Below, piece by piece: positions 6,077 to 27,321 of a DNA stretch of 27,321 nucleotides; position 1 is the first letter of the stretch; each line of letters opens with the position of its first letter. The DNA is taken from assembly GCA_010093815.1 (NCBI GenBank), contig ML996566.1; one strand, given 5' to 3'. This DNA comes from Pseudovirgaria hyperparasitica (taxonomy: Eukaryota). The notes under the pieces were generated by a model, which was not told where the DNA came from, did not search any database, and was given only the letters and a program-made list of their open reading frames with translations. A program made the translations under genes and the position numbers.

Positions 6077-6881
6077 GTATCTAGCCTCTTTCGAGATATT
6101 CTTTAATATATTTATAAAGAACTTCGAGTTCTAGTCTCGAAAGTAGGTAAAGTAGGCTATAAGGGACGTCTACTCTCTCTTTAAGCTCGATCTTTAGCTT
6201 ATACGGCCCGTGATTAGGGAGAAGTAACGCATCTTCTACCGAAAACACATCCGTATACTACGAATATATATCGGGTAGCGTGTCTTCGCCCTGATTATTA
6301 CTATTATCCTTATCTTTATTAATGATTAATAAGGATATAAGATAGATTAGTAACGATTAGGTCCGTATAGCGAGGTTCTATGCCTCCTTACTAATAGTTA
6401 CGACTTACTAGTATAATTTACCATAGTATTATCGGAACGTTAATATCTCCTTCTAAAAATTAAGAATAGGGTTTAGGCGTCTAAGCTAAGGTATCCCTAG
6501 AATCATATTCTATTAGCTAATATTAGCCATGATGAATTTATTAGATATCTACTATTTTATTATCTTCGAGTCATGAACTTCGTAATTCGTTATAGCTTTA
6601 CCTAAAGTTCTAACTTTATATCTATTAACTACGATAGTTCGGCTAACTTTACTAAGATCGTACGATAATCTATACTCCTTTATAAGAATCGACGAAATAT
6701 AGTTATCTTCTATACTAGTGTCTACGAGGGCCTATATAGTTTTATTACTATTTACTATGGGTAACGATACTTTTAGTAATATTAGGTCTTTACTCGCCGG
6801 AAGGCGCTACGGCTCCTCCTAAGTATATATAATTTAGCTAAGAACATAGTTAGGTCTCGTGTACTAGCCTATTCTTTTTTC
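6077..6881 (-). pseudogene. pol: pol of element B (protease and first RT residues), -1 frame relative to gag
   Basis: QALVDTGAEDNYIS (D codon 6722-6720; G seen as AGT); IELKEGADVPYGPLYPLSRLELEVL..YLERGWI, then an abrupt break. G AAA AAA at 6881-6875 lies just before the gag stop. Confidence 0.88.
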
Positions 6882-8137: not shown

Positions 8138-8216
8138 CCCTATAGTGGATCGTGTCGACCTTCTTAGTTCTAGTTAGACTATCTTAACTATAGTACTATA
8201 TAGATAGTAATTCGAA

Positions 8217-8444
8217 TATAAGAATAGAGTTATTAGATAGTAGTATAGTTAGATAGAATAATAGGGTGTATTCTATTATAGAACGAATTACTACCGAACC
8301 CTTTTAGTAGGAATCCGAGAGTATATATATAAAGGGACGCCGATCTATCTAGCACGTGACTATTTACCGCCCTTCACGTTACCTCCTAACCCTGTTAGCT
8401 AAGGTACATGTAGGTCGGGTCCTACCTAAGGCTAAGTCCTAATA
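8217..8444 (-). repeat. 5' LTR of element B (228 bp)
   Basis: Minus strand begins TATTAGG and ends CTTATA, like the termini of element C's LTRs; TATA-like run at 8322-8331; followed by a self-complementary PBS. Confidence 0.75.
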
Positions 8445-8789
8445 ATTTAGATATATATTCCTTATATAAGGAATATTATATATCTATTTATACCTGCCCT
8501 TTTCATAGGTTATAAGCCCGGAGGCTTATAGCTTATATTCGATACTTTATCTTAGGAACTTCTTTTACATCCCCAAGAGGCTAACTTGGTCTATTCGGGG
8601 TAATACAGCGAGATACATACCTTAATTAATAGAGTATACCGAGTACACTAACTACTACTATACGCACGTACGTATAGCGTTAAAACCAAGACGTTATCGC
8701 CGTGTAAAGATATATATATACCCTCTTAAAATCCTCACGGAGATAGAGGCACGGACCACGCTACTAGAACGCCGATATGCCGACCCCCT

Positions 8790-8822
8790 TTTATTAGTTA
8801 AGGGCAGCCCTTAACTAATAAA
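8790..8822. repeat. Palindrome TTATTAGTTAAGGGC-A-GCCCTTAACTAATAA, copy 1
   Basis: Perfect 16-bp arms with a 1-nt centre, immediately before the inferred ORF1 start. Confidence 0.95.
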
Positions 8823-8823
8823 T

Positions 8824-10287
8824 ATAGCGGCCTTAGGCACTGATATACCCCGGTATATACCGGATATACCCCTACCGGTACGATAGAAAAGGCTATATAG
8901 CGATATTACTAAGGGTAACTATACACCTATCTAAAACGTAGAATATACCTAAAGGCGTACACCGCTATAGATAGACGGAATAAAGGGGACCCCGAGAGGG
9001 GAAACCCTCCTAGATTATATTAACTACTAGGTAGTATATATAGAGAAGGAAGCCGGAGAGGGCTAGAAGACCCTCCTATATATATTCTAGAACCTTATCT
9101 AGAATCTAAAGGGAATTACGGAGGAGAAGAAGAAGATATAACTAGAAGGACCGGAGGGTAGGCTCGACTAAATAGAGGCTAGTCTACGTAGAATCTAGGA
9201 GGAACTTACTTAAGGTAAGCGCCCTAGTATATAGGTATAAATAGTAGTAACACCGGAGGCTATACTACGGGCCCCCCGGACCGGCGATATGGTATATAGT
9301 ATACGCGTTATAATCTAGGATAAGGATACCCTAGTATAGGTCTAGTAAGTATCTCTAAAGGATATAGTAAGTAAGATTAACGAATAAAAGAGAATATAGT
9401 TAAACGTTATCGCCGCTAAACTTACGCTAGGAGGAGTAGTACTTACTATAATAATAAATATTACGTAGTAGACTATCTCGCGCGATCCGAACGCGATTAG
9501 TAGTATCTTCCTAGGCGCCTCTATTAGAGCGGCCATATACCTAATATAGGTATACTCTATACCCGTAAGCGGATAGGTTATTAGAGAAGAGGATATTACG
9601 CGGATAGAATAGTTAAACGAGCGAAAATACCTAGAGATTAAGATCGTAAGAGCATGGTAGAAGAATATATAAGGGATTAAAACTAGATTAAAGGTATACT
9701 CCACTATAATAGTAGAGCTTAAGGACCCCGCCCTCGCGTATTAAATTATATAAGAGGGATTCCTAGCGGAAGGGGAGCTTCTTATAGCGGAACCATAGGA
9801 TAGAGCATAGGCGATAATATAGTGGTTTAACTATTAGGGATACGGGTATACGGTATAGCGGTACTCCTAAAAGACTAGGTATAGGTAGTATTAATAAGAA
9901 TATAGTACCTAGGAGTACCCCTATAGGACACGAGGAGAGGGCTAGAGAGATAGGGACACGGCGAAGTACTCTAACTACGACGGTAAGTACCCGTCGTAGT
10001 CGGCTACGTGCGCGAAACGTAAATAGGTTACCGAATATATCTACTTAATCCGGATAAAGGGAGTAAGGTAGCTATAAACGATATAACCTACTACCATTCC
10101 TCTCTTTACTATAATACTACTACTATAGACTACCTCCTTACGAGGAAGCGATTAGAAATAGTAAACCGTTCCGAGAAAGCCAATAATAGAACGGCCCTAA
10201 GGAATTACTAAGGCCGCCGCCGTATAAGGATAGTCGCGTCTTAGAGGAACGAATATATAGGCCTATATATTCCCTAGTACCTAATAA
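8824..10287 (+). pseudogene. LINE copy 1 ORF1 (gag-like, three CCHC knuckles)
   Basis: Frame +1; RIP-reversed FNCQGYGHTAQRC, CGQCQQEHSTWEC, CSNCDGKHPSWSATC at ~9820-10010; ends FPSTQ*. Start codon inferred (ATA GCG GCC). Confidence 0.85.
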
Positions 10288-13200
10288 GAGACTAAGATAC
10301 ACTCCTAATTATATAGATAAATATATAGTATAAACGTAAGAACTAGGTAACACTCCTTAAGGAGACCGGAGCTATAATACTCGCTATATAGGAGCTATAT
10401 AAACACTACCAGACGAACAAACCAATAACATACCTAGGATATTATATAATACACCCCCTAGGACCGGAGAGGAGAGTCCTCTTCTATATCTATAAGTCTA
10501 TTCTACTCTTATTATGGTCGTATACTAAACGGGATAACCTCCGGATAATACTATACCTCTAGACGAATATCGGACCCCTCCATATACATAATATATATAA
10601 TTAGAACTAATCGCTTTAGGCGGATAACATGCTTAAGGGCACTACCGAGCTAGGATAACACATCCTCCTAGGAGACTTTAACCTCTATTATAGCTAGTAG
10701 GGTAGACTAACTATTACCCGCGAAGAGCTTCGAGCTAGAGAACTACGCACCTAATACTATGGCTTCCTATACCTTCTTATACTAGTAGAATAGATTACCT
10801 GGCGAAAACATAAATAAGATAAGGGCGGATCCACACTCGACCTCACCCTAGCCACTAGACATATTTATAATAGGACTTAATACTACCGCCTAAGCCTTAT
10901 ATAGATAGACTCTAACCACGAATATATAGAGACCATAATAGACGTATCCACCCCTTAAGACTAACGAGGGCGATAGCTATAGAAGGATACTAACTAGGAA
11001 AAGTATCTAAAGGACCTAGAATCGACGATCCTAGACCCGTCTATAGTCGACGTATCTAATGGCCCGGCCATTAACCAGGCCGTGAATATACTCCTATAGG
11101 CGTACTAGGGAGTAAGAGATAAACACGTGCCGTACCGAATATATAGACCCCTAGACCCGAAAAGCATACCTTAAGTGCGAGAGCATAGGCGAGAAGTCCG
11201 GAGATTATATATACGCGTATACTATAACCGTATACCTAAAGCGTAGGATGAATAGAGAGAGACGAGAAGATAATAAGATAAGGTCCTCCGCAACGAGCGA
11301 CGTAAATAGTAGCGTATAGTTACGGATAGATATACACGTAATACTACTAGACTATAGTATATAGTAAAATAGGCTAAAAGTACCGCCTCCCCGATATCTA
11401 TACCACTTATACCCCCCCTTATATATTAAGAAAAGACGTACTCCACGAGCCTCGAGAAAATAGAGATCCTATAAGAGGTTATATTCCCTCTCCTAGAACC
11501 TATAGATCTATTAGATATTAACGGCACGGAATACCTAGAAGCTATAAGTATCCCTAGGGAAATCACGGACGACGATATACTTAGCGCTATTAAGACACTC
11601 CCGAATAATAAAGCGCCCGGGCTAGACGGAATTCTAAATCGATGCCTTAAGAGAACTATATAGGCGACCTTACTAATTATAGGCTATATATTCCGAGCGT
11701 ACGCCCGTATAGAATACCACCTATAGAGCTTCCGAACTATATATATGGTTATACTTCTAAAACTAGGGAAGAGCCTAAACACGCCGAAGGGATAGAGGCC
11801 GATCGCCCTTCTCTTCTACCTTAGCAAGGTACTAGAAGCCACGATTACTAAGAAGATAAGTATAGTAGTATAGGTACACGGCCTTCTCCTAGTAAACCAG
11901 AAGGTAAAGGTAGGAAGCTCCCTAATTATAGCTATTTAACACATCCTCGAGGTTATCTAGACTATATAGAAATAAGGACGAGTCGTTACGCTACTCTCCC
12001 TAGACATAGTAGGGGCGTTTAATAAGGTAAACTATATAAGACTTATCCATAACCTCCGGATAAGGCGAATACCTAAGTGGATTATACGATTTATATAGTC
12101 CTTCCTCGCGTAAAGGACTACTTAAATATATATCCCCGGATACCGAAGCGAATATAAGGAGACGGTATACGGCATCCCATAAGGGAGCACCATCTCCCCG
12201 ATTCTCTTCCTCTTCTTTATAGTAGACCTCCTTTAGAGAATAGAATATATAGAGGTAGTTAGATACGCGGACGATATATACCTCCTCACGGTCGATAGTA
12301 GTACTAGTAGAATATATACACGACTCGAACGAGACCACGAGAAATACGTCTAGTGGGTAAAGTACCACGGAGTAAAATTCGCACCTGAAAAATACTAGCT
12401 TATATACTTTATTAACCGCCGTAGAGGATAGGCTACTAGGGAGGGGGCACGTCGCCCCTAAATCGACGCCTTTATAGAACTACCAGTATAGAGTATACGA
12501 GCACTCGGCGTTATAATCGATAATAAGCTAAAATAGGGACTATAGGTGGCATACGCCGTCTCTAGAGCCCTCTAGATAGAAACCACTATACGCTAGATTA
12601 CGGCATCCATATAGGGAACAGCCTAGAATAAGGCGAGATAGCTATACGTCTCCCTAGCACGCCTAGCCTTTATATATGGACACGAGTACTAGTATACGGC
12701 CCTTATATAAGCTTAGCGGGTAAAGCTTAAGTCTATATAAAACCGTATACTCCGCCTTATCTCCGGCGTATATAAAGCTACTAATATAATACTTCTCTAA
12801 CGCGAGATAAACGTAACGAGTATATAGAACTTCTACTAGATATAGAGACTTATATACTTTACTAAATAATAAGTATAAGAACGTGGAGGAGATAGGGTAT
12901 ATACCTTCGCTATACTACGCACACGTATCCGCGCGTATTACTAGGCCCTCCCTACTATAGAATAAACTCGAGTATAATATAAATACTATATAGAGGTAGA
13001 CTCGAGCTAGACCGTATAGAAGGTTCGAAATAACCCGGATACCGTTCTAAGCTAATAGAGCCCTAAGAAGCTTAGCCGCGTTATACGGTTATAGATCTAG
13101 AATAAATAGAGGGAGATACTTAAAGCCTAGTAGGCCTCCTAATAGGATAGGTATCTAGAATAGATCCGAGGGCCTTAGAAGGAACCGAGTAAATAGATAT

Positions 13201-13474
13201 ATAAAGGGCTTACGAAGGCCTAAGTATCCATACTCCTCTAAGCCCGAATAGGCGCTATAGGTCTTCTATATTACCTCTACTAGAGAGGCGTCCTAGATAT
13301 ATCTCCCTAGTACGAGGACTACGGCCGGAGAGATATAATACGCCACTACCTCGCGACGTGCTCTAGCCTCTATACCCTAAGATAAGCCCTCGTCCGTATA
13401 ATAAGAACCTCCGATATCACGCGATAGCTTAATAAGTACCCTAAGGACGTCGCCCGATAGATACTTATATATCA
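10284..13474 (+). pseudogene. LINE copy 1 ORF2 (AP endonuclease, RT, C-terminal Cys/His knuckle; no RNase H recognised)
   Basis: Frame +3: AIQEP, LLGDFNLHH, STLDLT, DSDH; KAPGPDGIPN, WRPIALLSCLGKVLE, LDMAGAFDKV, GIPQGSTISPILF; intact YADD at 12264-12275; CxxC...H...C near 13310-13362. Confidence 0.93.
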
Positions 13475-13974
13475 TTATAGCTTATATTCGACCGTTTATT
13501 ACGAATTATACGGCTTATCTCTATTAAGTTATCTTAATAGAAAGAGATCTACTAGCGTATAGTCCCTACTAGCTAGGCCTCTAGTAATAGAGATTACCTA
13601 GTATCTAAGGTATAACTTCTATCCTACTATATACTCTAGACCTTTATATATATATATTTACCTCTATCTATATATATATATATATAAAGGGAACCTTTTA
13701 ATTATTATATTAAAGGGGACTCTATTATTTATTATAGAAAAGAACTTCTTATACCCTAACGGACCAAACTAGTCAATTCGGGGTAAAACAGCGATTTACA
13801 TACATTAAATAATAGAGTACACCGAGTATAACAACCTCCGACATACGTGCGTACGTGTAGTATATAATACGCGATAATACCGACGTATAGAGATACTATA
13901 TATATATACTCGAAGACTCTTCGATAATATAAGTATAGACTATATCTAATAAACGCCGATACGCCGACCCCCTT

Positions 13975-14005
13975 TTATTAGTTAAGGGCTACCCTTAACT
14001 AATAA
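13975..14005. repeat. 31-bp palindrome, copy 2 (centre CTA)
   Basis: TTATTAGTTAAGGG-CTA-CCCTTAACTAATAA. Confidence 0.95.
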
Positions 14006-14007
14006 CT

Positions 14008-14274
14008 ATAGCGGCCTTAGGTATTATAATACCCTAGTATACGCCGGATATACCCCTACTAGTACGGTAGAAACGGCTATATAGTAATATTAATATGGAT
14101 AGCCAGACACCTATCTAAAATATAGGAACTAACTAAGGGTGCGAAGCGCCATAGATAATCTAGACTAAGGGGACCCCGAGAGGGGAGACCCTCCTAGATA
14201 AAATTAAATACTAGGTAACACGTATAGAGAGGGACGCCGAGAAGGGAAAGAAGACCCTCCTTTATATATTCCGG
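14008..14274 (+). pseudogene. LINE copy 2 ORF1, 5' fragment
   Basis: Homologous to 8824-9090; joins in frame with 22291-23475 (267+1185 nt = 484 codons). Confidence 0.8.
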
Positions 14275-14514
14275 TATTAGGGTTAATACTAGGATAGACT
14301 CAACTAGACCACTATGGTCCAGTACGGTCCGTGACAGGTGGACCCAGGGTAAGCCAGCTAGAATAAGCGAGACCACTATATAAGTAGGCCGCATATACTT
14401 GATTCCTACTCTTTAGGAATTAACCTCGTTAGAAGAGTAGACTACCCTTCTAAATATATTCCCGAATCCTCCTATGACCTATTAGACTACTATCCTACGT
14501 CTATAATCCTTATA
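14275..14514 (+). repeat. 5' LTR of element C
   Basis: Matches 22046-22285 with 10 transitions by manual count; TATATAA at 14377-14383. Confidence 0.97.
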
Positions 14515-14516
14515 TT

Positions 14517-14525
14517 TTAATTCCT
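14517..14525 (+). promoter_or_regulatory. Putative self-priming PBS of element C
   Basis: TTAATTCCT is the exact reverse complement of AGGAATTAA at 14415-14423 in the LTR. Confidence 0.65.
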
Positions 14526-14555
14526 CTTTATATAGCACGACGGTAGTTTATAGGA

Positions 14556-15938
14556 ATGGCTCTAACCACTTATTATAACACTCGTGGCACCGCCTCTTAT
14601 GGTAGACCTTCTCCCAACCTAAACAAGGAGAATAGTCTACCTATAACTACCCCTACTAATAACTACATCTTATAGGCTATCGTACCGATAACTCGCACGA
14701 TATTCCGTGTAACTATAGAAGATGTTATAGAATACGAGGATGGAGTCTATTATACTCTATCTCGGTCTAGTTCGAACTATACTAGACCTAACCTTAATAT
14801 AAGGCTAGACCTTATTAACGTTAACGAGTTAATCCATTAGAATCGCCTAACGTTAACTACACCTTATAATAACGTGTATACTAGACTACACGAAGAGAGG
14901 TAACGACAGGTTTAACTCGAGTAATAACTACGCGAACTCGACGAAGCTCGAGGACGCACTACGAGACTTAAAGCTATATTACGCGCTTTAGTTCTAGTAA
15001 CGACTAATCTATATTTATATAGACCTATACCAACTAAAACGATCTATCCTAGTCTACTACTATCCCAATTACCCCGACCTAAGAAACCACCTTACTTCGA
15101 TGGTAAAAGTAGAAAGAGTTTCCACGTATAGGCTTACTAATATAGCCGATTCTTCCATCTATTCACGAACGATAGCGATAAAATTAGATTCGCCTAGAAC
15201 TACCTCGACCCGACGCCTTTAGAACGTTAGATGGTACACCGAATCGAATATTCTAAGGATGCCTATAACTAGGACACGTTTACCGAATTTCTCCTCTAAT
15301 ATTTTAGCGATAGGGCTAAACGACGCGACTAGGCCTAGAGCCATATCTTCGAGACTCGATAACGAGATAATTAGTTACCGTTATAACTCCTTAAATACCT
15401 TCGGCCCCTCTAGAGAGAAGCCGAAGAAGATCATATAATTTAATAGTACGACGACTTTAAACGGTCCCTCGCCCTAAATATAAAGAACCGTCTCGACCTT
15501 ATAACAATAATCCCTATAGACCTCTAAGCTCTTATAAATCTCGTGGAGCGATACTAGCGCATAATGAATAATTAACGCCGCGCTAGTGCACGACTATCCC
15601 TAACGATCCAATCTAACGTAAAATCGTCTAACTAAAACTAATTTAGTAATAGATCTCGCGGGACGTCACGAGGCTACTACTACGCCTCGAATTTAAAACC
15701 ACGCGGATCGTATCGTGGATCTCTCTACCAATTAATACATCGAGATACGAGGACCGACTCGCATAAATAATCTAAAGTTACTTACTATACCTATAGTAGA
15801 ATAGGCTATATAGTACCTAAGTGCCGTTTAGGGAAGCTACCGAGTGCTAATATAACTAACTAACTAGTTATATACTATAAGTGCTAGTAGCTAGGACACA
15901 TCGCGCCTAACTATCTAGTATAGAATATAAAAAACTAA
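14556..15938 (+). pseudogene. gag: gag of element C (two CCHC knuckles)
   Basis: ATG 14556 in frame with TAA 15936-15938; PKKPPYFDGKS; RIP-reversed CYTCGRMGHIAPEC and CYKCQQPGHIAPNC. Confidence 0.88.
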
Positions 15939-15990
15939 TAGCCTACGAGAAACCCTCGCGACTTATAGGCGCGACTATAATAGAGGGGTA
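15929..15990 (+). promoter_or_regulatory. -1 ribosomal frameshift signal of element C
   Basis: In-phase A AAA AAC (15929-15935) directly before the gag stop, 5-nt spacer, stem GCCTACGAG/CTTATAGGC; pol is in the -1 frame. Confidence 0.75.
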
Positions 15991-18900
15991 ATCCGCTAAA
16001 TAGTATATCGAACTATAGGCTAGACCCATTAAGGTCCCTCGTGGATAATATTAGACTATAATACTTAATAGTGGGTCGGCCACTAACGTTATATTAACCT
16101 AACGAGCACGAGAACTTAACGCTAATATCTAAGCTCCAATAGGTGCTATGTTCCATGGTATCGACGGTCCCATTAAGTTATACGGTACCTATACCATTAA
16201 ATACGGCATCTGGGATAGCGGAGGGAAATGGAAACTCTACTACTTAACCTTCATTGTGGTAGATAGTCCCTTCGATATAATCCTAGGTATGCTATGGCTT
16301 AAGAAATATAACCTAAAACTAGACTTCCTTAAGAAGATAGCTGGCTGGCGTATAAATCTACCTTAATAGGAACTAGTGTAGCTTGTCAACGACGAACAAT
16401 TCTAGAAAGATTACGAGAAGGCGATCTCTACTATCTACGTACTCTTACTCACGTAAAATAGCGAGCTTAGTATTAAAGCGGACGAAAACCTACTATATTA
16501 GTATAAAATATACTAACATGTCGCGTCAGCGATCGATTCCTCCGAACTACCTTAATACTAACCTACCGACCTTGCTATTGATCTCGAAGACGGCTAGTAA
16601 CCTCTATATAGACCTATCTACCCTCTTTTAGAACCTGAGTTATAAGCCCTTCAAGAATATATTAAAAAGAACCTTACGTAAGGATAGATTAGGCCTAGTA
16701 TATCTCTAGCCGGAGCTCTAATCCTCTTTATAAAGAAGAAGGATAGGAGCCTCCGTCTGTGTGTTAACTACCGTGGCCTAAATAATATCACGCGAAAGAA
16801 TCGTTATCTACTACCTCTTATCTCCGAGTCTATTAATAGACTAGAACGCGTAAAGATCTTTACTAAGCTCGATCTACATGACGCCTACTATCGCCTTCGC
16901 ATTAAGGAAGGCGACGAATAGAAAACGGCTTTTAGGACCTATTATAGATACTTTAAGTATACCGTGGTCCCTTTTAGACTAACTAACGCGCTAGGTACCT
17001 TCTAAGCATATATTAATAACGCGCTAGCAGGCCTACTCGACACGACATGTATCGTGTACCTAGATAATATCCTTATCTTCTTAGATAACGAGGAGGAGTA
17101 TATCTAGTACGTACATACAGTCCTAGATAGGCTAGAAAAGTATAAGCTATATATTAAGCTATCTAAATGCGAGTTCCATTAGGACCATGTTAACTTTCTT
17201 AGCTTCGTTATTACTAATCAAGGTATAACCATAGAGAGAGATAGAGTTACTACTATTATGGACTGGTCTAAACCAAAATCCGTTCGAGATATACGTGTCT
17301 TTATTAGCTTCGCTAACTACTACCGAAAATTTATTAAACACTTCTTCCGTTTAGCCGCACCACTTAATGCGCGTACTACTACTACCGACTTATCTATTAT
17401 GGTCCGTGGTGGATAGAAACAGCGTAATATCAAATCATAACCTATTAAATTAACTAAGGTTAAAAGAACATCCTTCGAGAAGATTAAAGAAGCATTCCTA
17501 ACCGCCCTATTACTAGTATACTTCGACCTAACTAAACCTATTCGCGTCGAAACTAATGTATTAGGATTTATAATCTCGGATATACTCTCCTAGCCTAGAC
17601 TAATAGAGTCTAAAAAGGTCTAATAGTATCTAGTTGCGTTTTTCTCGCGCAAGATAGCCGACGTCGAGACTAGATATACTATTTATAACTAAGAGCTACT
17701 AGTAATAGTAGAGTCGTTTAAGTAGTGGTAATATTATCTTAAAGGTACTATATATAACGTTAAGTTACTAACTAATTACTATAACTTAAAGGGGTTTATG
17801 AGCATGACGGTTTTAAATCGTCGATAGATTTAATAGGCTAAGTAGCTTATAAATTTCTACTTTATAATCTACTATCGACCTAGAAGTATAAACCTAGCTA
17901 ATAGAATATTAAGAAGACCTAACTATGAAGAAGGCGCCTAGGATTATAGTAGCTATAGGGTCCTAGAGTAGCTATAGACCCAACTCTTAAGGATAAGGTT
18001 AGATAATGAGTTATCCGACGATTAGCGAGATGCTAACGCCGATGCCGGTAATTAAATTTATGAGACCGAAGCCGGTAACTAAAGACGCGGTACCGAAGTC
18101 CCTAGCGAGCCATTTATCGGCGCTATTAGAGAGGGCGATAGTGCCCGGCGTGTATATTAAGTAGACCTCGCCTAGTTAATCGTGGATCTATAAAAGATAG
18201 ACCCGACAGTTTTAAAGTTACGTAAAATATAGTAAGATAGGTTATTACGGACTAAAGTAGACTATAAGTGGACCTTCGTGGACGGCTTACTCTACTACGA
18301 TGGAAAGTACTATATACCGATAGGCAACGCACGATTTACCGTAGTTAGCCGATACCATAACGCTAACCTAGTAGGACATTTCGGGTATATACGCACCCTA
18401 AGCTCGATTTATTAGTACTATTTTTAGGAAGATATACCTAAGTATATCGAAGAATAGATAGCTACTTATCCGATTTATTAAAGAATAAAGGCACCTAGGC
18501 ATAAGCCATATAGGAACTTACAGCCTCTACTAGTCCCCCTCTTTATATAGGAAGATATTACTATAGATTTTATAGTTAACTTACCTCTAAGCGAGATGCT
18601 TAGGATAAGTTATAATTTAATTCTTATTATCGTGGATAGACTTATAAAGATATCTAGGTACGTCCCTATGTAGAAGACGATTACATTAAAAGAACTAGCA
18701 CAAGTATTCTAGAATAAGATTATTAAGGTCCATGGTATACTAAAAAGGATCGTTACGGACCGAGGGAGTACATTCACGTCCAAATTCTAGACGTTATTCT
18801 GCGAAATGGCCGGCATAAATAGAAATATATTAATAGTATTCCATCTATAAACAGATGGTTAGATAGAGCGATAGAACCAAATGCTCGAGGCCTACCTTCG

Positions 18901-19795
18901 TGCATTCTACAATTTCGAATAAGATAACTAGGCCTCTCTACTAAGCATAGTAGAATTCGCGTATAATAATAGTCGTTATAGTATAATAGGTGTCACGCCC
19001 TTCTAGGCAAACCTAGGACGTAGTCTAAGGACAGGTTTCGAACCTTACACGGTCTAGTTCGACCGAACGATAGATGTTAACGTCCACGCGCAGGAACTAG
19101 CGATTAAAATCTTTAAAACCGCACGCAACTATCGCGTAATAATCTAGTAAGCGAATAAGTCGTATATAAAGTACTATAATAGATTAGTTAAAGATTAAGC
19201 GTACGAGGAGAGAGACGAAGTCCTCCTTAACGTCTATAATATACGAACGTTAAGAGTGAATAAAAAGCTCGATTATAAAATGGCTAGTCCCTTCCGAATC
19301 AAACGTTACATCGGCATAAGAGCCTACGAGCTCGACCTAGGAAACGACATGAAAGTCTATAATGTATTCTACGTCTTATTACTTAAAAGGTTTCGATCTA
19401 ACGTGTATAAACGCACGAACGTGTAATTACACTCTATTATGCCCTAAGATAGACTAGACGTGTACGAAGTGGACTATATTATCGAACATAGGCTCGATAA
19501 GAACGGTGTCTAAAAGTATCGAATCTATTGGAAGAACTACACCGAGGATAAGGACACCTAGGAACCTACGGTGTATATCTTAAGTGCCGCGATAGCTATA
19601 TATAAATAGAGGTTATAGGATAACACGTTACTACCATAAACCTAGCGCCGTTAGGGCCGTCGTAAAAAGAAGAAGGATGCCGTAGAGAACGAAGTGTTAA
19701 ATCACGAATCCTAAACGCACACTAGGAAAACTCTATAAGGCAGCCCTATAATTTAAGCGATGCACGGTTACCAAACGCGAAGAAAACGTAAATAA
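15929..19795 (+). pseudogene. pol: pol of element C (protease, RT, RNase H, integrase, chromodomain)
   Basis: Frame +2: LDSGSATNV; ORF 16148-16366 is the protease C-half (FDIILGM.WL); SLRLCVDYRGLN; YLDD seen as TAC CTA GAT AAT at 17057-17068; VETDASGF; GHFG, ITMDF, IVTDRG, FHPQTDGQTERQN; GPF; chromodomain VYEVDYII...HWKNY...DTWEP (~19460-19570); ends RRKRK*. Confidence 0.95.
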
Positions 19796-19952
19796 CCGTT
19801 ATAGACACGCGACGCGATATATTATAATAGAATAACATGGAGAAGTCTAGAATGGACTAATATAGACTATTACACACGAGAAGAACATAGAACTAAGAAA
19901 CTAAAAAGGTACCCTACTACGGAATTAAACTCGTAATATATAACATAAAAGG

Positions 19953-20002
19953 TTAGAGTACCCGAACCGATAACCACTAGGCCACTGGTTCGGGTACTCT
20001 AA
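19953..20002. repeat. Inverted repeat with 16-bp perfect arms between the pol end and the antisense gene end
   Basis: TTAGAGTACCCGAACC (19953-19968), 18-nt loop, GGTTCGGGTACTCTAA (19987-20002). Confidence 0.9.
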
Positions 20003-20253
20003 TATAATTTAGAGAGATAAACTAATTTATATACGATGCCCACACTTAAGTAACTCAAAGGAAATTAGAATCTAAAATTCAATAGTTATAGAATAAATAA
20101 GAACGCATATAATATCATTAAGTTAAGAATTAAATTACTAGAAAACTAGTAGATAGGTATCTAAACGGTCTAAAAAGGACTAAAACGGACAGAAACCAGG
20201 TAGATAGAGCCAACACACACCATATAGAAACCCTAGTAAACAGAGCCATAGAG

Positions 20254-21558
20254 CTACTCCTCTATCTTATTATTACTCTTAGAGCGTAGTAAACGAACTA
20301 ACCGAGTAATAGAGCGACGGAGGTTAGAGACCTTATCCTCTAGAGTAACCACGCGCTCGGTTAGAGCCTAGTAAGACGACGACTAAGCGCTAGAGCGGAG
20401 CGACTAGACCTAAAGTTAGCTAACACGGTCTAGAATAATCTAGAATAGAATATATACCCTCTTACGAGGTAACTTAGAAGGAGAACTAGTAGATCTCTTA
20501 CGAGACCCGTTAGTAGCACGAGGTAGGCGGGAAGGAATAGCACGAATCTCTTCTGCGGCCTTAGTAGCCAAAACCGACTCCCTAGAATAGGTAGCCTAAG
20601 CGCTAGGAATCTCGCGGCGACTGAAAATTATAAGCTAAGGCTAATAATAATTAACGGTTTCTAAACTTACACTTTAATAACCTCTAGAAAGAGCTTATAG
20701 CGCTCCCTAAACTCCCTACGCATAGAAGCTAGGTAACCGCTAGAACCGCCGAGAGTCTCGCGGACGCGAAGATCGTTATATATATCTTATACACGAATAG
20801 GAACCTAAAAACGTATTAGCATGGATGACTTTAGATTACCCTAGACTAAAATAGCCTAATAGACTTATCTAAAGACAAACTTTACCGAGGACGGTATAGC
20901 GGCGGTAGCGGGTAGGGAGCTTAAAGATTAGGTATATAGGCCCGTCGCGGTTAGTAGAGTAGTAGCTAATACTAGAGTTAGAGCGGAAGAGATATTTAGA
21001 GCTGGTGGCGTGAGCCTTAATATACTTAAAGTATATCGAACCGTAGTTCGCCGTTTTCCTATGGCGTAAACCGCGACCACGTTTAGTATCTTCGGCGACC
21101 TAGGCCTTATTATTACTAGGGCTAGGTTTAGAGCGAATATTAAGGTCCTAAAAGGACCTAGAGTAACTAAGTCGGTCTATGTTAGACCGAAAAGAGGAAC
21201 GGCGTTTAGAGCGAGGCGGCGAAGGCGTGAACTCTCGATTATCGTCTACGACGAGATCTTCTTTATCCTCTAAAGAAGGTAGAGTAGATAGGCGGCGCGA
21301 GTAGGTGTAGGTAGGCTTTATAGCTACCTCTTCCGTAATACTAGTACTAGGATTACCTAGATTAGAGCGACCAGTGGCCACGTTAGTAGTAATAGTAGTA
21401 GTAGCCTTAGCTACCTTCTTCTCTAACTTAGAGCGTGCCTTTATACCACTATAATAAGTGGATTTTTTGGCCGGTGTAGCCGGGGTAGAGGCAATCCCTT
21501 TAGAGCGAGTCTTGCGAGAGGAGGAGGTAGGCTTAGGAATAGAACTAGTATTAGATAT
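20254..21558 (-). pseudogene. Antisense 4-exon accessory gene of element C (~380 aa): basic/Ser-rich N-terminus, Zn(II)2Cys6-like cluster, C-terminal coiled coil
   Basis: Exons 21558-20869, 20804-20671, 20620-20458, 20409-20254 (690+134+163+156 nt = 381 codons). Introns of 64 nt (donor seen as ATAAGT, GCTAAT, TAG), 50 nt (GTAAGT..CAG) and 48 nt (GTATAT, GCTAAC, TAG). ORF-track hit 21148-21381 is part of exon 1. Confidence 0.78.
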
Positions 21559-22028
21559 CTATACACACACGTTAGCTAGAGATCTAAGAGTAGAATACTC
21601 GTTCAGTCTTAAAGGCGATTAAAAAAGCTAAATCAGTAACCGTAATAACGCGAATAGATTACATAGGACCAGCTCTAACGAAAATAGACCACTCTAGACC
21701 CGAACGGATCTAAACTAAAGGAGATAGTATACGAATTAACGACTTACCTTAAGAGTAAGGTAGATATACTAGAGAAGAAAATTCAGAATAAGAGAACTAA
21801 ATATAAGCTTAGTTAATATAGCGGTTACATGACCCGCGGAGCTACCTCTAAGGCAGTAGCTATGAAGTAAGGGATGAGCGCGTATATAAATAAAAGTAAA
21901 CTAGAGCTCGAGTTTACCGATATAAAGACTATCAATAATATTATATAGATTCAATTAGATGCGCGTATAAACATAACGCTTATAGAATTACGGATTTATA
22001 TATAGCTAAGTACTTCGGGGCGAAGCAT

Positions 22029-22042
22029 AAAAAGAAGAAGGA
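22029..22042 (+). promoter_or_regulatory. Polypurine tract of element C
   Basis: AAAAAGAAGAAGGA, 3 nt before the 3' LTR. Confidence 0.85.
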
Positions 22043-22045
22043 TAT

Positions 22046-22285
22046 TATTAGGGTTAACACTAGGATAGACTTAACTAGACCACTATGGTCTAGTACGGTC
22101 CGTGATAGGTGGACCCAGGGTAAGCTAGCTAGAATAAGCGAGACCACTATATAAGTAGGCCGCACATACTTAATTCCTACTCTTTAGGAATCAACCTCGT
22201 TAGGAGAGTAGACTACCCTTCTAAATATATTCCCGAATCCTCCTATGACCTGTTAGACTACTATCCTACGTCTATAATCCTTATA
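22046..22285 (+). repeat. 3' LTR of element C
   Basis: Direct repeat of 14275-14514, followed by the TSD TCCGG. Confidence 0.97.
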
Positions 22286-22290
22286 TCCGG

Positions 22291-23475
22291 GACCTTATCT
22301 AGAACCTAAGAGGAATTATAGAGGAAGAAAGGAAGTCGCCACGAGAGGAACCTAGTAGTAGGCTCGACCGAATAGAAGCCAGTCTACGGAGAATCTAGAA
22401 AGAGCTATCCTAAGGTAAGCGCCCTAACACGTAGGCTTAGATTATAGTAATACCCGGAGCCACCATACTAAGGACTACTAGGACCATAGATAGAGTATAT
22501 AGTATACGTATTATAATCTAGAATAAGGACACGCTAGCGTAGGTCTAACGGGCATCCCTAAAGGAAATTATAAATAAGATTAATGAATAGAAAGGAATAT
22601 GGTCGAGCGTTATAGCTACTAAAGTTACGCTAGGTAGGGTAGTACTTACTACTATAATAAATACTACGTAGTAAAATATCTTACGAGATCCGAACGCGAT
22701 AGGTAGTATCTTCCCCAGCGCGTCTATTAGAGTAGCTATATACCCGATTATAGTATATATAGTACCCGTATAGGGATAGGCTATCGGAGCGGAGGATATT
22801 ACGTGTATAGAATAATCTAACACGCGAAAATACCTAGGGATTAAGATCGTAAAAGCGTGGTAGAAGAACCTATAGGCGATTAAGACGACGGCGAAAAAAC
22901 ACTCTACTATAATTATAGAGCTCCGAGACCCCGCCCTTATATAACGCATTATATAGGAGGGATTCCTAATAGAAGAAGAGCTCCTTATAGCCGAGCTATA
23001 GGATAGGGCATAGGTAATAATATAGTGCTTTAACTATTAAGGGTATAGATATACTATATAAAGGTGCTTATAGAAGACTAAGTACGGATAGTACCGTGGG
23101 GACCATACTACCTAGGAGTGCCCTTATAAACCGCGAGGAGACGGACTAAGAAATAGGGACATAGTATAGTATTTAAACTACGACGGGAAACACCCGTCGT
23201 AGTCGTTAACGTGCATAAAATATAAATAGGTTATAGAATACATTCGCATAATAAAAGCGAGAGACGCAAGATAGTTATAGAATATAACACCTACTACGAG
23301 CCCTTCCTTTATAACACCCCTAATCTCCCCTCCGGAAGATAGTTAGGCGGGATAGTAGACTATCCCGAAGACGATAGGACGACTAAAAGGCATAGTTAAA
23401 GCCGCTACCGCGCGAGGATAGTCGCGCCTCCGAGGAATAAGTATATAGGTATATATACTTTCTAGTACCTAATAA
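22291..23475 (+). pseudogene. LINE copy 2 ORF1, 3' part
   Basis: Homologous to ~9091-10287; QCFNCQGYGH and two further CCHC knuckles at ~23020-23215. Confidence 0.87.
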
Positions 23476-26400
23476 GGGACTAGAATATACTCTAAATTAT
23501 ATAGGTAAACATATAATATAAAAGAGAGAACTAGGCGACGCTCCTCGAAGAGACTAGGGCTATAATACTCGCCATCTAGGAACCCTATAAATACTACTAG
23601 ACGAGTAAACCAACCACACACCCCGGATACTATACTATACACCCTCTAGGACTAGAAAGACGAGTTCTCTTCCACATTTATAGGTTAATACTACTCTTAT
23701 TATGGTCGTATACTAAGCGCGATAACCTTAGGATAACACTACACCTATAAATAGATATAGGCCCCCTATATATATATAACATATATAACTAATAACGTAT
23801 ACTTATACTAGACGAGATACTCGAGGGTACTACGGAACTAGAGTAATATATCCTCCTAGGAGACTTTAACCTCTACTACTAATAGTAGAGAGGCCTAGCT
23901 ATAGTTAGGGAAGAACTTAGAGTAAGGGAACTACGCACCCACTACCACGACTTCCTATACCTACTCACACCTATAGAATAAGTTATATAGAAAAAACATA
24001 AATAGGACGAAGACGGGTCCACGCTTAACCTTACCTTCGCCACGGAGTATATTAGTTACCGGATCTAATACTACCACCTAGGCTAGGTATAGACGGATTC
24101 CGACCACGAATACATAGAAACCGTAATAAATATATATACCCTAAATAAATAACGGGGACGATAGATATAGAAGGACACCGACTAGGAAAAGTACCTAAAG
24201 GACCTAGAATCGGCGATTCTAGATCTCTCTATAGTCGATATATCTAATGACCTAGCTATAGACTAGGCCGTATAGATACTCCTATAAATATACTAGAATA
24301 TAAGAAATAAACACGTACTATACCGAATATACCGGCCCCCGGAAGTAAAGGGGATTCCTTAAGTATAGGAAAGTAGATAAGACGCCTAAAGGCTATATAG
24401 ACGCGTATACTATACGAGAACACCCGAGTCGTAGAAAGAATAGAAGGAAGCGATATAATAACGCGATAAAGTCCTCTATAACGAAAGGCGTAAATAGTAG
24501 CGTATAATTACTAGTTAATAGATATAATACGTAATAGGGCTATAGCGTATAGCGAAATAGGCCAAGGGCGTAGACACTCCGACACCCCCGCTACTTATGC
24601 CTCCCCTAATATATTAGAGGAGAACATACTCTACGGGCCTTAAGAAAACTAAGGCCCTACGGGAGGCTATATTCCCTCTCCCGGAACTAGTAGATCTATT
24701 AGACGTTCACGGCGCCGAATATCTATATATGGTAGATATCCCCGAAGAAGTTACGGAGGAGGATAGACTTAATATTATTAAGATACTCCTAAATGATAAA
24801 GTACCCGGACTAGATGGAATTCTAAATCGATGCCTAAAAAGTACTATAAAAGCGACCCTACCACTTATTACTCGTATATTCTAAGTATATATCACGTAGG
24901 GGTACCACCCCTAGAGCTTCCGAGTCGTCTATACTATTATACTCCTAAAGCTAGGAAAGAGCCCTAACTCCCTAAAGGGATAGAGACTAATCGCCCTTCT
25001 CTTCTACCTAGGTAAGATACTAGAGACTATAATAGCAAAGAAGATAAGTACCGCAGTATAGGAATATAATCTCCTCCCTCCGAACTAGAAGGTAAAGGTA
25101 GATAGCTCCCTAATAATAGCTATCTAATATATTATTAAAGTCGTCTAGGCCGTATAGAAATAGGGACGGGTAGTATCGCTTCTCTCCCTCGATATGGCCG
25201 GAGCGTTTAATAAGGTAAACCATATAAGACTTATTCATAACCTCCGGATAAGACGAATACTAGAATAGATTATACGCTTTATATAGTTATTCCTTATAGG
25301 AAGAATAACTTAGATATATATCCCTAGGTACTAGAGTAAATATAAAGAGACGGTATACGGCATCCTATAAGGGAGCACCATCTCTCCGATCCTATTCCTC
25401 TTCTTTATAGTAGACCTTCTTTAAGGAATAAAGTATATAGAGGTAGTTAGATACGCCGATAATATATACCTCCTAGCTATTAATAATAATACTAACCGAA
25501 CGTATAGACGACTAGAATAGAACTACGAGAGGTGCCTCTAGTAGGTAAAACGCTATAGAATAAAGTTCGCCCCGGAGAAATACTAGCTCATACACTTTAT
25601 TAATCGTTAAGGAAAATAGATAACTAGGGAAGGCGAACGACGCCCCCGAATCGACGTATTTAATAAACTACTAGTATAAAGCATACGCGCGCTCGGAGTT
25701 ATACTAGATAGTAAGCTTAAATAGGGACCATAAGTGGTATACGCCGTCTCTAGGGCCCTCTAGATAGAAGCCGCTATATAACGGATTATAGCCTCCACGT
25801 AGGGAACCGCCCGGGATAAGGCACGCTAGCTATATATATCTATAGTACGACCCGCCTTTACGTACGGACACGAGTACTAATATACAGCCCTTATATAGAC
25901 TAGGCGAATAAAGCTTAAATCTATATAGAACCGTATACTCCGTCTTATATTAGGCGTATATAAAGCTACTAATATAGTACTACTACGACGCGAGATAGAC
26001 GTTATAAGTATATATAACTTCTACTAGATATAGAGGGTGGTATACTTTACTAAATAATAAGTATAGGAACGTATAGGAAACGTAGAATATACTTTCGCCG
26101 CGCTACGCGCATGAATTAGTATATATTACCGTGTACTCCTATATATAGGCCGGAATCGAATATAGTATAGGTGCTTAATAGAAGCCGACTCTAGCTAAGT
26201 AGTATAAGAAGTCCAAGATAACCCGGACGCTCTCCTAGACTAGTAGAGCCTTTAAGAACTTATAAAAAATATACGGTCGTGGACTTAAGATAAGTAGAAA
26301 GAGGCACTCTATACCTACTAGACCTCCTAGTAGAATAGGTACCTAGAGTGGATTCGAGGGCCATAGAAGGAACTAAGTAAATAGATATATAAAGGGCTAA

Positions 26401-26795
26401 TAAAAGCCTAAGCATCTATACTCATCTAAGCCCGAATGGGCGCTATAGAACTCCTATACTATATCTATAAGAGAGGCGTTCCCGATACCTCCCTATAGTA
26501 TAAGGCGTATAGCCGGAGAGGTATAATACGCCACTATCTAGCTATATACCCTAACCTCTATATATAACGGTAATAGCTTATCTACGTTACGAAGACTTTA
26601 GATATCGTATAATAGCTTAATAAGTACCCTAAGGATGTCTCCTAATAGATACTTATATATCTACTACTCCTCTAGTACTAGTAGACCTAGAAAGATATAC
26701 TAGAAGAGACCCGGTATACGCCGGTAGTAACCCGATATATACCGGAAGAACCCCGGGAGAACCCCGATTATTAGTTAAGGGCAGCCCTTAACTAA
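23472..26795 (+). pseudogene. LINE copy 2 ORF2 (AP endonuclease, RT, Cys/His knuckle)
   Basis: Same motifs as copy 1; YADD seen as TAC GCC GAT AAT at 25452-25463; the frame runs into the third palindrome copy, so the stop position is inferred. Confidence 0.92.
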
Positions 26796-26798
26796 TAA
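26768..26798. repeat. 31-bp palindrome, copy 3
   Basis: TTATTAGTTAAGGGCAGCCCTTAACTAATAA, identical to 8791-8821. Confidence 0.95.
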
Positions 26799-27018
26799 CC
26801 TCCGTACCTATACGTGCTACCTAAGGGTAAAATAATAGTAATATAGACTATAGGCTAATAGGCGTACCCTATAGCTATATACTTAAGACGAAATAGAGGT
26901 TTAACGAGATGTAGTTATAGATATAAGGAAGTTTTTCCCTATAGGGTTTCTTCTTATATAGTGGCTTAGACTAGAGGAGGCATAGGTCTATAGAGTACTA
27001 CTCTACCTAGTTATATAA

Positions 27019-27048
<30 letters not shown>
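27019..27048 (+). repeat. (TAT)10 tail at the 3' end of LINE copy 2
   Basis: Trinucleotide run whose last two units overlap the TSD. Confidence 0.85.
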
Positions 27049-27049
<1 letters not shown>

Positions 27050-27321
27050 TATTATAGGGATATATTCTATCTCTATAATATTTATATAGTATACTTAGAG
27101 TTTCTAGGCCCTAGAACCCTTAGAAAATTATCTAGTATACTTATAGCTAGCGAGAATATCTATTTTATAGAGTTTATTATAATAGATATAATATATAAAA
27201 AATAGTTTATACTATTACTTTATATATTCTATTATATAAGACTTCTAGAGTAAAGGGAAACTCTAGAAGAACTCTATAAAAAGTATTCTAGAGAAGATAG
27301 ATCTATTAAATAGACGAACGA

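Follow-up and report, generated by a model that had tools for sequence, protein, structure and literature searches.

Does the extra DNA that follows pol in a fungal chromovirus carry a gene of its own on the opposite strand, and if so, of what kind? The question is raised by one element in a 27,321-nt stretch of Pseudovirgaria hyperparasitica DNA (assembly GCA_010093815.1, contig ML996566.1; hereafter the window, with its first letter as position 1). Element A, as we call it, spans 14275-22286 and is a full-length, RIP-mutated chromovirus with extra DNA 3′ of pol. Its LTRs, 5-bp target duplication and PPT were all found. The two LTRs agree at 231 of 241 positions (96%), all ten differences being transitions, and the sequence of element B, the host of element A, resumes across the target-site duplication. 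The gag-pol frame contains 129 stops in 1761 codons. Pfam matches fall in a single plus-strand frame and include RVT_1 (1.7e-23), RT_RNaseH_2 (2.1e-15) and Integrase_H2C2 (1.3e-5), followed in the C-terminal part of the same pol frame by SH3_Tf2-1 (1.6e-10) and Chromo (9.9e-6). Reverse transcriptase, RNase H, integrase and a C-terminal chromodomain in one frame, together with the LTRs, target duplication and PPT, are the marks of a chromovirus. The one-frame domains, the LTR pair and the target duplication bear out the original prediction of a complete chromovirus with extra 3′ DNA. The pol stop, which had been put at 19795, has to be moved, as the first stop past the basic tail of pol is at 19712-19714. 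The pol-to-PPT interval is ~2.3 kb. The parts of the element are as follows.

14270-14274, no strand: target-site duplication TCCGG, left copy; same 5-mer at 22287-22291.
14275-14515, plus strand: 5′ LTR of element A; 241 nt, repeated directly at 22046-22286.
14516-19714, plus strand: gag-pol region, RIP-degraded, with RT, RNase H, integrase and chromodomain, from Pfam and stop counts.
19663-19678, plus strand: internal exact copy of the PPT, TAAAAAGAAGAAGGAT, within the K-rich C-terminal tail of pol; left border of the module; 16-nt direct repeat with 22028-22043.
22028-22043, plus strand: PPT in working position, adjoining the 3′ LTR and marking the module's right border; repeat of 19663-19678.
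22046-22286, plus strand: 3′ LTR of element A; direct repeat of 14275-14515.
22287-22291, no strand: target-site duplication TCCGG, right copy; same 5-mer at 14270-14274.

The duplicated PPT frames the extra DNA. In 300 simulations of 19600-22100 with a first-order Markov model, no exact repeat reached 16 nt, and the segment between the two copies, 19679-22043, measures 2,365 bp. From the sequence, the antisense unit described below looks like a module of this length gained between the ancestral PPT and the LTR. The intact target duplication and LTR pair speak for mobility of the element together with its module. Neither blastn nor tblastx found similarity between 19700-22045 and the rest of the window, so the region is no fragment of element B, C or D. 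Toward its left end lies a perfect inverted repeat whose RNA fold has an energy of -36.3 kcal/mol (z -8.7; equalled by 0 of 200 shuffles), a possible 3′-end or terminator element of the antisense unit. A tRNA identity for its hairpin loop was considered and dropped, as a tRNA scan of the window returned 0 genes.

On the minus strand of this segment one frame stands out. Between 21558 and 20872 it has 2 stops in 229 codons, compared with 10 and 36 in the other two frames of that strand and 7, 13 and 45 in those of the plus strand. It is the unique minimum among 53,264 equal windows taken in six frames over the whole window (mean 19.4 stops). The region is RIPed as strongly as the rest of the element (TpA/ApT 1.8-3.2), and its antisense frame is less broken by RIP than the pol frame of element A (2/229 versus 129/1761 stops). 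We thus find a coding frame opposite gag-pol, between pol and the 3′ LTR. It can be followed through four proposed exons.

21748-22027, minus strand: presumed, from position alone, to hold the 5′ exon and the promoter of the antisense unit.
21559-21747, minus strand: proposed 5′-UTR intron of 189 nt, from donor GTAAGT (21747) through branch GCTAAC (21576) to acceptor TAG (21559-21561).
20881-21558, minus strand: exon 1, coding part, from translation and stop counts; first codon ATA, RIP-compatible with ATG.
20805-20880, minus strand: proposed intron 1, with two alternative donors that both preserve the frame, GTTTGT at 20880 (length 76 nt) and ATAAGT at 20868 (length 64 nt); branch GCTAAT at 20820, acceptor TTTTAG; 2 stops in 25 codons.
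20671-20804, minus strand: exon 2, from translation; 1 stop in 44 codons.
20621-20670, minus strand: proposed intron 2, 50 nt from donor GTAAGT to acceptor TTTCAG; 3 of its 17 codons are stops.
20458-20620, minus strand: exon 3, basic and Ser-rich, from translation; 1 stop in 54 codons.
20404-20457, minus strand: proposed intron 3, 54 nt from donor GTATAT through branch GCTAAC (20420) to acceptor TAG; 4 stops in 18 in-frame codons.
20254-20403, minus strand: exon 4, from translation, with stop TAG at 20254-20256 and a heptad-like C-terminus; 2 stops in 49 codons.
19953-20002, no strand: inverted repeat with perfect 16-bp arms around a loop of 18 nt; the antisense stop is ~250 nt upstream of it.

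Without 20880-20805, 20670-20621 and 20457-20404, the spliced frame has 374 codons and 6 stops, each of them TAA or TAG. Read in the incoming frame, the removed segments contain stops at 9 of 60 codons versus 6 of 374 in the exons (Fisher p = 2.7e-5). Exons 2-4 alone are moderately open, with 4 stops in 147 codons versus 12 expected (p = 0.008, uncorrected for frame choice). These stop counts and the exon-intron contrast back the original prediction of a formerly open, intron-split antisense frame. It was also right that the four exons form a single frame and that the breaks are TAA or TAG; its length of 381 codons becomes 374 with the GTTTGT donor at 20880 or 378 with the ATAAGT donor at 20868. 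The splice signals lie exactly where they had been placed: GTAAGT at 21747 and 20670, GCTAAC at 21576 and 20420, GCTAAT at 20820 and GTATAT at 20457. GCTAAC or GCTAAT occurs 12 times on the minus strand of the window, and the three occurrences inside the gene are all 10-17 nt upstream of proposed acceptors. TTTCAG and GTTTGT are each found twice on that strand, with one of each at a proposed splice site. Proposed intron 2 has no canonical CTRAY branch, and the donor of proposed intron 1 is weak. In two of the three coding introns an in-frame TAG stop is the acceptor, and because TAG is very common in RIPed DNA, these two acceptors come nearly free.

This copy of the gene is dead. Its start reads ATA, six or seven codons are TAA or TAG, and there is no Gln or Trp codon. 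Residue counts in the 374-codon model are Gln 0, Trp 0, Cys 0, His 2 and Tyr 19, beside the six TAA/TAG codons; such stops combined with absent Gln and Trp codons are the pattern of RIP converting CAA, CAG and TGG. The predicted protein has 78 K+R versus 30 D+E in 374 aa. Exon 1 encodes a basic, Ser/Thr-rich stretch of ~150 aa and then one dense in Tyr and His (11 in 58 aa), a density that shuffling the protein reproduced in 10 of 5000 trials. A heptad-like pattern is apparent in the translated C-terminus, encoded by exon 4.

The best explanation, and on the sequence evidence a fairly probable one, is that this high-copy fungal chromovirus carries an accessory gene on its antisense strand, here in a copy that RIP has killed. 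The ancestor of the family would have gained a whole transcription unit, with promoter, introns and 3′ end, between PPT and LTR, and duplication of the PPT on acquisition would have preserved plus-strand priming beside the LTR. Antisense introns stay in the sense genomic RNA and so survive retrotransposition. With its introns and 3′-end signals unseen on the genomic RNA, the unit would be copied whole in each round. The gene would be transcribed toward pol from its own promoter and then spliced, and its product would have been strongly basic, Ser/Thr-rich and mostly disordered, with a module once dense in Cys, His and Tyr and a C-terminal heptad helix. By analogy, the most likely function would be that of a nuclear nucleic-acid-binding regulator of the element's expression or silencing. 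The locus would then be a fungal example of an intron-split extra gene, which is stable only in antisense orientation. The PPT duplication would be a clear footprint of a module inserted without killing the element, a PPT copy being kept beside the LTR. Extra antisense genes are one of few routes to new functions for LTR retrotransposons. To our knowledge, no role has been demonstrated for any of them outside retroviruses. As the window copy is RIP-dead and its protein has no recognisable relatives, it alone cannot tell what such genes do.

The antisense layout itself is already known from other retrotransposons, to which the window's gene would add an intron-split fungal case. In Botrytis cinerea and Sclerotinia, Boty-like Ty3/gypsy elements carry the antisense gene brtn (Zhao et al. 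2011, Virology 417:248, as described in passages of PMC7264820, PMC8365987, PMC4227169 and PMC5987419). Compared by position and orientation, brtn is like the window's gene in being an extra, antisense gene in the pol-to-3′ LTR interval, and Boty is like element A a fungal Ty3/gypsy element with a chromodomain (a passage of PMC4227169). In plants, antisense extra ORFs occupy this interval in maize Grande, in rice RIRE2 and in Silene and other Retand elements (TRP28 domain), according to passages of PMC7264820 and PMC11963269. They share with the window's gene their position, orientation, presence in most copies and long pol-to-LTR interval, and a nuclear or DNA-binding regulatory role has been proposed for them. 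However, they belong to plant non-chromovirus lineages and encode other proteins, and TRP28 (PF04195) was not found by Pfam in the antisense exons. Unlike the plant cases, the window's gene has proposed spliceosomal-type introns, and its interval is bordered by a PPT duplicate. Deltaretroviruses also carry antisense genes, such as HBZ of HTLV-1 (a passage of PMC11963269). HBZ is like the window's gene in lying antisense to gag-pol near the 3′ LTR, and it is a regulator with a helical dimerisation-type C-terminal region. It is a spliced bZIP protein. It differs in belonging to a vertebrate retrovirus and is unrelated in sequence.

RIP reduces the power of all homology searches with the antisense gene, and these weakened searches found no conservation of it in other elements or species among 79 related loci or in protein libraries. 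Pfam returned nothing meaningful for the four exons at E <= 10. With exon 1 (X at stops), a word-based search scored 421 candidates, none at E <= 1, and the ESM Atlas yielded no usable match to a stop-free stretch of 76 aa. The best tblastn match of the spliced protein and exon pieces to the 79 related metagenome loci had E = 0.77. RIP-aware pairwise alignment against 91 antisense ORFs, a test of low power in which the null scores high, reached z = 2.09 at most, a value that 3 of 116 decoys equalled. The sole match of exon 1 in an exhaustive HMMER search of 1.84 billion representatives (E = 7e-5, 6 stretches) was P0121, an internally repetitive protein of 1016 aa, and was judged spurious.

Related chromoviruses do carry antisense genes, including a family, A3, of ~170-aa ORFs with a Zn2Cys6-like part and a coiled coil that abut the 3′ end of pol. 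Its host chromoviruses come from metagenome contigs and from the genomes of Dothideomycetes and Lecanoromycetes. An antisense Gal4-like ORF abuts pol in 6 of the 79 related metagenome loci, and at E <= 0.01 the family has 278 proteins. Weak Zn_clus matches are present in 9 of 30 members, Leu3, Ppr1 and Lac9 are among the best matches to PDB sequences (E 0.06-1.1), and the first 13 places in the Foldseek ranking are taken up entirely by Zn2Cys6 DNA-binding domains (E 0.2-2.6). These proteins suggest the idea of element-encoded DNA-binding regulators. The host elements resemble element A in pol, 33-40% identical when read through RIP, and in having an antisense gene between pol and LTR; a Cys-rich module plus helix is a possible common theme. 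However, A3 is a single ORF without introns and half the size, and in the six cases with pol upstream it lies -22 to +38 nt from the end of the pol match, whereas the window's antisense stop at 20254 is ~540 nt from the pol stop at 19714. Against the window's gene as read, the A3 profile found a best local score of 12.7 bits, on the helix only. A RIP-aware test placed the best alignment in a low-complexity region, and the Zn part scored 19.7 versus a null of 18.7 +/- 4.2 (maximum 36.1). With the Cys-candidate stretch, hhalign gave a probability of 0.09%. Profile scores within the null, the interrupted gene and the distance from pol speak against membership of A3. It is a long shot that the gene instead belongs, as a strongly diverged member with introns and an N-terminal extension, to a wider, undescribed class of antisense Cys-cluster and coiled-coil DNA-binding regulators in fungal chromoviruses, of which A3 would be the clear case. 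Such proteins might bind the LTR to tune transcription or counter silencing and might have been repeatedly acquired or replaced at the PPT-LTR junction.

The original prediction had gone further and proposed a Zn(II)2Cys6-like identity for the protein, for which we find no support. A Gal4-type regulator would have this binuclear cluster, then a dimerising coiled coil, and would bind DNA such as the element's LTR. RIP turns both Cys (TGY) and His (CAY) into Tyr, so the Tyr/His cluster could be the remnant of such a module; the heptad-like C-terminus and the existence of A3 point the same way. We nevertheless consider this reading very improbable. The six proposed Cys positions comprise one Cys codon and five Tyr codons, and the first loop has 29 residues versus the 6 of the canonical C-X2-C-X6-C-X5-12-C-X2-C-X6-8-C, to which the sequence does not conform. 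Zn_clus (PF00172) was not found by Pfam in the four exons even at E <= 10. Allowing any RIP-reversible Cys codon (TGY or TAY), the spacing of the second half of the cluster occurs 130 times in the 54,638 codon positions of the window, a six-position pattern of the predicted type is found in 38 places, and the full canonical pattern in 3 places elsewhere. Because TGY/TAY patterns are this frequent in RIPed DNA, the proposed spacing is no more than chance. The comparison with the Zn part of A3, within the null, also counts against it, as does the heptad-like stretch, which is ~150 residues downstream of the putative cluster and not adjacent. What is shared with fungal Gal4-type factors is only the spacing of the last four putative Cys and a heptad-like stretch somewhere downstream, the defining six-Cys spacing and profile match being absent. 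Among the titles returned by literature searches, none dealt with a Zn-cluster antisense gene in fungal retrotransposons. That there is no gene at all, and that TA-rich RIPed DNA produced the open frame and its introns through its composition or through an old feature of the sense strand, is quite improbable too. Minus-strand signals are indeed frequent (GTATAT 2.0/kb, CTAAT 2.0/kb, TTTTAG 1.0/kb), and there are 0.6-0.8 intron-like units per kb that have a strong donor. The mirror frame on the plus strand is fairly open, at 7 stops in 229 codons, and no search found a homologue or an RNA run that contains the stretch. However, composition would have to account for a frame that is the unique minimum of 53,264 windows, a strong periodicity of three bases (the minus frames have 2, 10 and 36 stops), the stop contrast between exons and introns, and branch positions for 3 of 3 GCTAAY motifs in the gene.

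The remaining alternative, which we regard as unlikely, grants the gene and denies it a role: a transduced host gene, or part of one, may have hitch-hiked as passenger DNA and may have been a pseudogene before the family amplified. Sharp borders at the duplicated 16-nt PPT and a whole intron-bearing unit are what captured cellular DNA would leave, and the product has no retroelement-type domain and no relative in the 79 related elements. Transduction is one named source of extra ORFs (a passage of PMC11963269). Yet the frame is more open than pol after RIP, every one of its six breaks is a TAA or TAG, and Gln and Trp codons have vanished altogether, which indicates that the ORF was intact until RIP. 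Transduced ORFs are also typically found in one or a few copies, whereas family-wide ones are regarded as functional (a passage of the same source). In the organism's own DNA runs, 9,499 contigs in run X1 and 3,679 in run X2 match 18500-22300, each run covering 30 of 30 bins; the contigs are short, their summed depth is not a copy number, and the runs may be the window's own source and hence not independent. In the X1 contigs, 280 of 291 difference places are transitions. Among the difference places listed (40 of 313), variant letters within the gene are each carried by 6-43 contigs, one compensating indel pair is seen (21012/21014), and there are no joints and no frame-restoring indels in the RIP-variant contigs over the region. 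The original prediction had counted absence of the region from other copies as evidence against itself; colinear RIP-variant contigs cover all 30 bins in both DNA runs. As judged from these short contigs, with no joints among the places listed, the region is present in most copies of the family and not in one transduced copy.

Two minor observations concern these and further runs. Run X3 gave one contig, of 193 nt and 89% likeness, on 20191-20343, and run X4 gave none. Contigs from other copies extend past 22286 into sequence that partly matches that 3′ of the 5′ LTR.

The entire window is fungal DNA altered by repeat-induced point mutation (RIP), with TpA/ApT at 1.4-3.2 throughout the 27 kb, (CpA+TpG)/(ApC+GpT) mostly below 0.5, and 2,344 TAA+TAG against 52 TGA among plus-strand trinucleotides. 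It consists of retroelements nested in one another. Beside the chromovirus, element A, these are:

1-8767, plus strand: second Ty3/gypsy pol at the left end, running off the edge, with Pfam matches to RT, RNase H and Integrase_H2C2
8768-14251 and 13952 onwards: tandem copies of LTR element B (LTR-internal-LTR-internal array; flanks 22287-27321), internal parts 71-85% alike

Rightward within 1-8767, minus-strand translations resemble gag and aspartic protease by eye, with no Pfam match. Element B, in which a Pfam search of every minus frame over 9068-13950 found no domain, could be non-autonomous and carry an ORF of unrecognised type. Element A is inserted inside the second B copy, about 23 nt into the second internal part, and B sequence resumes across the 5-bp TCCGG duplication that borders element A. 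The original prediction of a complete chromovirus is borne out by this duplication, by LTRs (14275-14515 and 22046-22286) with 10 differences in 241 positions, every one a transition, and by a single plus-strand frame with Pfam matches to RVT_1, RNase H, Integrase_H2C2, a Tf2-type SH3 and a chromodomain. The pol is degraded, with 129 stops in 1761 codons, barely below the other frames. Read through RIP, it shares 33-50% identity with its nearest proteins in a large protein library, most of them encoded on 5-13 kb metagenome contigs. Between the pol end and the PPT, the 16-nt tract beside the 3' LTR, the extra DNA that had been reported measures about 2.3 kb.

The minus strand of this interval probably carries a real, now dead accessory gene of the chromovirus family, most likely intron-containing. 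From 21558 to 20872 there are 2 stops in 229 codons, compared with 10 and 36 in the two remaining minus frames. Among 53,264 windows of 229 codons in six frames (mean, 19.4 stops), it is the sole one with 2; the next-lowest are stretches of element B (3 stops) and the pol of element A (4). A stretch of one minus frame of element B, at 10964-12121, has just 3 stops in 229 codons. The RIP load at 21558-20872 equals that of the surroundings, and the openness therefore stems from encoded content, not RIP sparing. Acting on an intact ORF, RIP turns CAA/CAG and TGG into TAA/TAG, CAY and TGY into TAY, and ATG into ATA. The joined antisense frame of 374 codons begins with ATA and contains no Gln, Trp or Cys, 2 His and 19 Tyr, the pattern expected from such a history. 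Its 6 stops are all TAA/TAG, as had been claimed.

The proposed division into four exons by three introns stands in part. The frame is interrupted thrice, by 76 (or 64), 50 and 54 nt, and resumes in the same or a different frame. Donors are GTTTGT (or ATAAGT), GTAAGT and GTATAT, the third being RIP-compatible with GTATGT; acceptors are TTTTAG, TTTCAG and TCTAG. In the incoming frame, the segments hold 9 stops in 60 codons versus 6 in 374 for the exons (Fisher p = 2.7e-5). GCTAAC/GCTAAT occurs 12 times on the window's minus strand, and all 3 occurrences within the gene lie 10-17 nt upstream of proposed acceptors, those of the 5'-UTR intron, intron 1 and intron 3. However, intron 2 lacks a canonical branch motif. 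Two of the three acceptors coincide with in-frame TAG stops, so that acceptors of this type are nearly free in RIPed DNA. TA-rich donors are frequent there as well (GTATAT, 2 per kb), and intron-like units with a strong donor have a background rate of 0.6-0.8 per kb. Exons 2-4 taken alone are moderately open, with 4 stops in 147 codons versus 12 expected. Because splice-type signals come cheaply in RIPed DNA, the intron model, read from sequence, is likely but short of proven.

As the original prediction entailed, the region is present family-wide. Short contigs from X1 and X2, two DNA runs of the source organism, were placed on 18500-22300 at a likeness of at least 80%. They number 9,499 and 3,679, respectively, and cover 30 of 30 bins in each run; both runs possibly share the window's source, and summed contig depth is not copy number. 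Of 291 difference places in X1, 280 are transitions. Given full coverage and RIP-type variants, the 3' region is part of a high-copy, RIP-diversified family, like pol and LTR. Among the difference places listed, variant letters within the antisense gene occur in 6-43 contigs apiece, and one compensating indel pair (21012/21014) is present. No joints, and no intron-less or module-less form, were found among the X1 and X2 contigs over 18500-22300. The frame changes of the antisense gene are not private indels of the window copy. In X3, a run from another study under the same species label, a single 193-nt contig (depth 4.2) lies on 20191-20343, confined to the antisense gene's 3' end, with 17 of 153 letters different.

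The PPT, TAAAAAGAAGAAGGAT (22028-22043), recurs once, exactly, at 19663-19678, coding there for pol's Lys-rich tail. In 300 Markov simulations of this region, exact repeats reached at most 15 nt, never 16. P0001 and P0002, two close pol relatives, end in a comparable basic tail, and a flanking repeat lies 82-598 nt past the pol match in 10 of 17 related loci with a repeat; some of these repeats may be assembly wrap-arounds. We infer that a 2,365-bp module (19679-22043) was acquired at the PPT-LTR junction in element A's family. The ancestral order would have been pol, PPT, LTR, and the module would have entered between PPT and LTR, duplicating the PPT and leaving a primer site adjoining the LTR. 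Its contents (upstream region, 5'-UTR intron, coding exons and a 3' region with a hairpin) would amount to the whole antisense unit, consistent with capture of a whole cellular-type gene. Introns and 3'-end signals survive passage through genomic RNA only in antisense orientation, which may have let the captured gene keep both. The hairpin is:

19953-20002: 16-bp inverted repeat, perfect although the DNA around it is RIP-degraded, enclosing an 18-nt loop

Its RNA fold has -36.3 kcal/mol (z -8.7); a tRNA scan ruled out a tRNA. Pol and the antisense gene converge on it from either side, and from this position it could serve as a 3'-end element.

The encoded protein, as read, is very basic (78 K+R versus 30 D+E), and Ser/Thr make up 90 of its 374 residues; it has a long, low-complexity N-terminal half and a C-terminal stretch of hydrophobic residues spaced 3-4. 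Word-based, HMMER, Pfam and ESM Atlas searches returned no recognisable relatives or domains. One stretch has 11 Tyr/His in 58 residues, a density equalled in 10 of 5000 shuffles. This stretch may reasonably be guessed to have been a metal-binding module rich in Cys/His, although RIP renders Cys, His and Tyr indistinguishable here. The original prediction went further, to a Gal4-type Zn(II)2Cys6 cluster, which we consider very unlikely. Pfam gives no Zn_clus match, five of the six proposed Cys positions are Tyr codons and one a true Cys codon, and the first loop has 29 residues versus 6 in the family. The second-half spacing said to fit is at chance level: with TGY/TAY read as Cys, it occurs 130 times in the window's 54,638 codon positions, or about 0.9 expected per gene of this length. 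On the same reading there are 38 occurrences of the predicted type of six-position pattern and, elsewhere in the window, 3 of the full canonical spacing. Against the Zn part of family A3, Gal4-like antisense ORFs of related chromoviruses, the protein scores 19.7 (null, 18.7 +/- 4.2), and hhalign of A3 with the Cys-candidate stretch gives a probability of 0.09%.

Aligning 13 pol relatives led to 79 chromovirus loci from metagenome contigs. By tblastn and RIP-aware alignment, nothing in them resembles the window antisense protein. Several have long pol-to-LTR intervals with antisense Cys-rich ORFs. Family A3, an ORF of about 170 aa tail to tail with pol (-22 to +38 nt from the pol-match end), occurs in 6 of the 79:

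L069:4586-5134, minus strand, A3 ORF
L061:1311-1844, minus strand, A3 ORF
L056:5608-6129, minus strand, A3 ORF
L035:5638-6159, minus strand, A3 ORF
L037:2839-3411, minus strand, A3 ORF
L078:173-736 and 6626-7174, minus strand, A3 ORFs

A search with its profile recovers 278 proteins at E<=0.01, with named sources including Sporormia, Macroventuria, Periconia, Boeremia and Xanthoria (Dothideomycete and Lecanoromycete genomes); UniRef names the Periconia member a Zn(2)-C6 fungal-type domain protein. Six Cys, spaced exactly as in Zn2Cys6 clusters, are invariant across the 30 aligned members, as is one Trp; a long helix and an SP..W motif are likewise shared. Zn_clus matches weakly in 9 of 30 (best E = 0.002), and a PDB sequence search places Leu3, Ppr1 and Lac9 among the best matches (E 0.06-1.1). 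In the AlphaFold model (mean pLDDT 77.8), a small domain at the N-terminus is accompanied by a helix of 56 residues. The top 13 Foldseek matches of this model are without exception Zn2Cys6 DNA-binding domains (Ppr1, Pho7, Put3, Hap1, Gal4, Lac9), although only at E 0.2-2.6. Judged by sequence and model, a predicted Gal4-like antisense protein does occur in nature in related chromoviruses, so the idea first put forward for the window appears realised in related elements. Family A3 shows no detectable similarity to the window gene, however, and its size, position and exon structure are different; it merits separate study. The titles listed by literature searches included none on an antisense Zn-cluster gene of a fungal retrotransposon and none describing family A3.

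Further antisense Cys-rich (CxxC...CxxC) ORFs, some split over two frames, lie in related chromoviruses with about 2 kb from pol to LTR:

L001:6066-7012, minus strand
L017:7101-7868, minus strand
L032:6901-7778, minus strand
L028:14087-15283, minus strand
L074:4625-5766, minus strand
L058:3077-4282, minus strand

These six have no Pfam match and no similarity to the window gene or family A3; among themselves, only the pairs L017/L032 and L074/L058 are similar. Chromoviruses may have gained antisense Cys-rich genes repeatedly.

Published examples of extra antisense ORFs lying between pol and the 3' LTR include those of maize Grande, rice RIRE2, Retand and Phaseolus PvRetro13 (PMC7264820, PMC11963269), and brtn is such a gene in Boty of Botrytis and Sclerotinia (PMC7264820, PMC8365987, PMC4227169, PMC5987419). 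As Boty also possesses a chromodomain (PMC4227169), the layout is already known in a fungal chromovirus. From those descriptions, rather than from sequence, brtn and the window gene are alike in position and strand. A function for the window gene would be inferred by analogy. The window gene adds a further case of the known layout.
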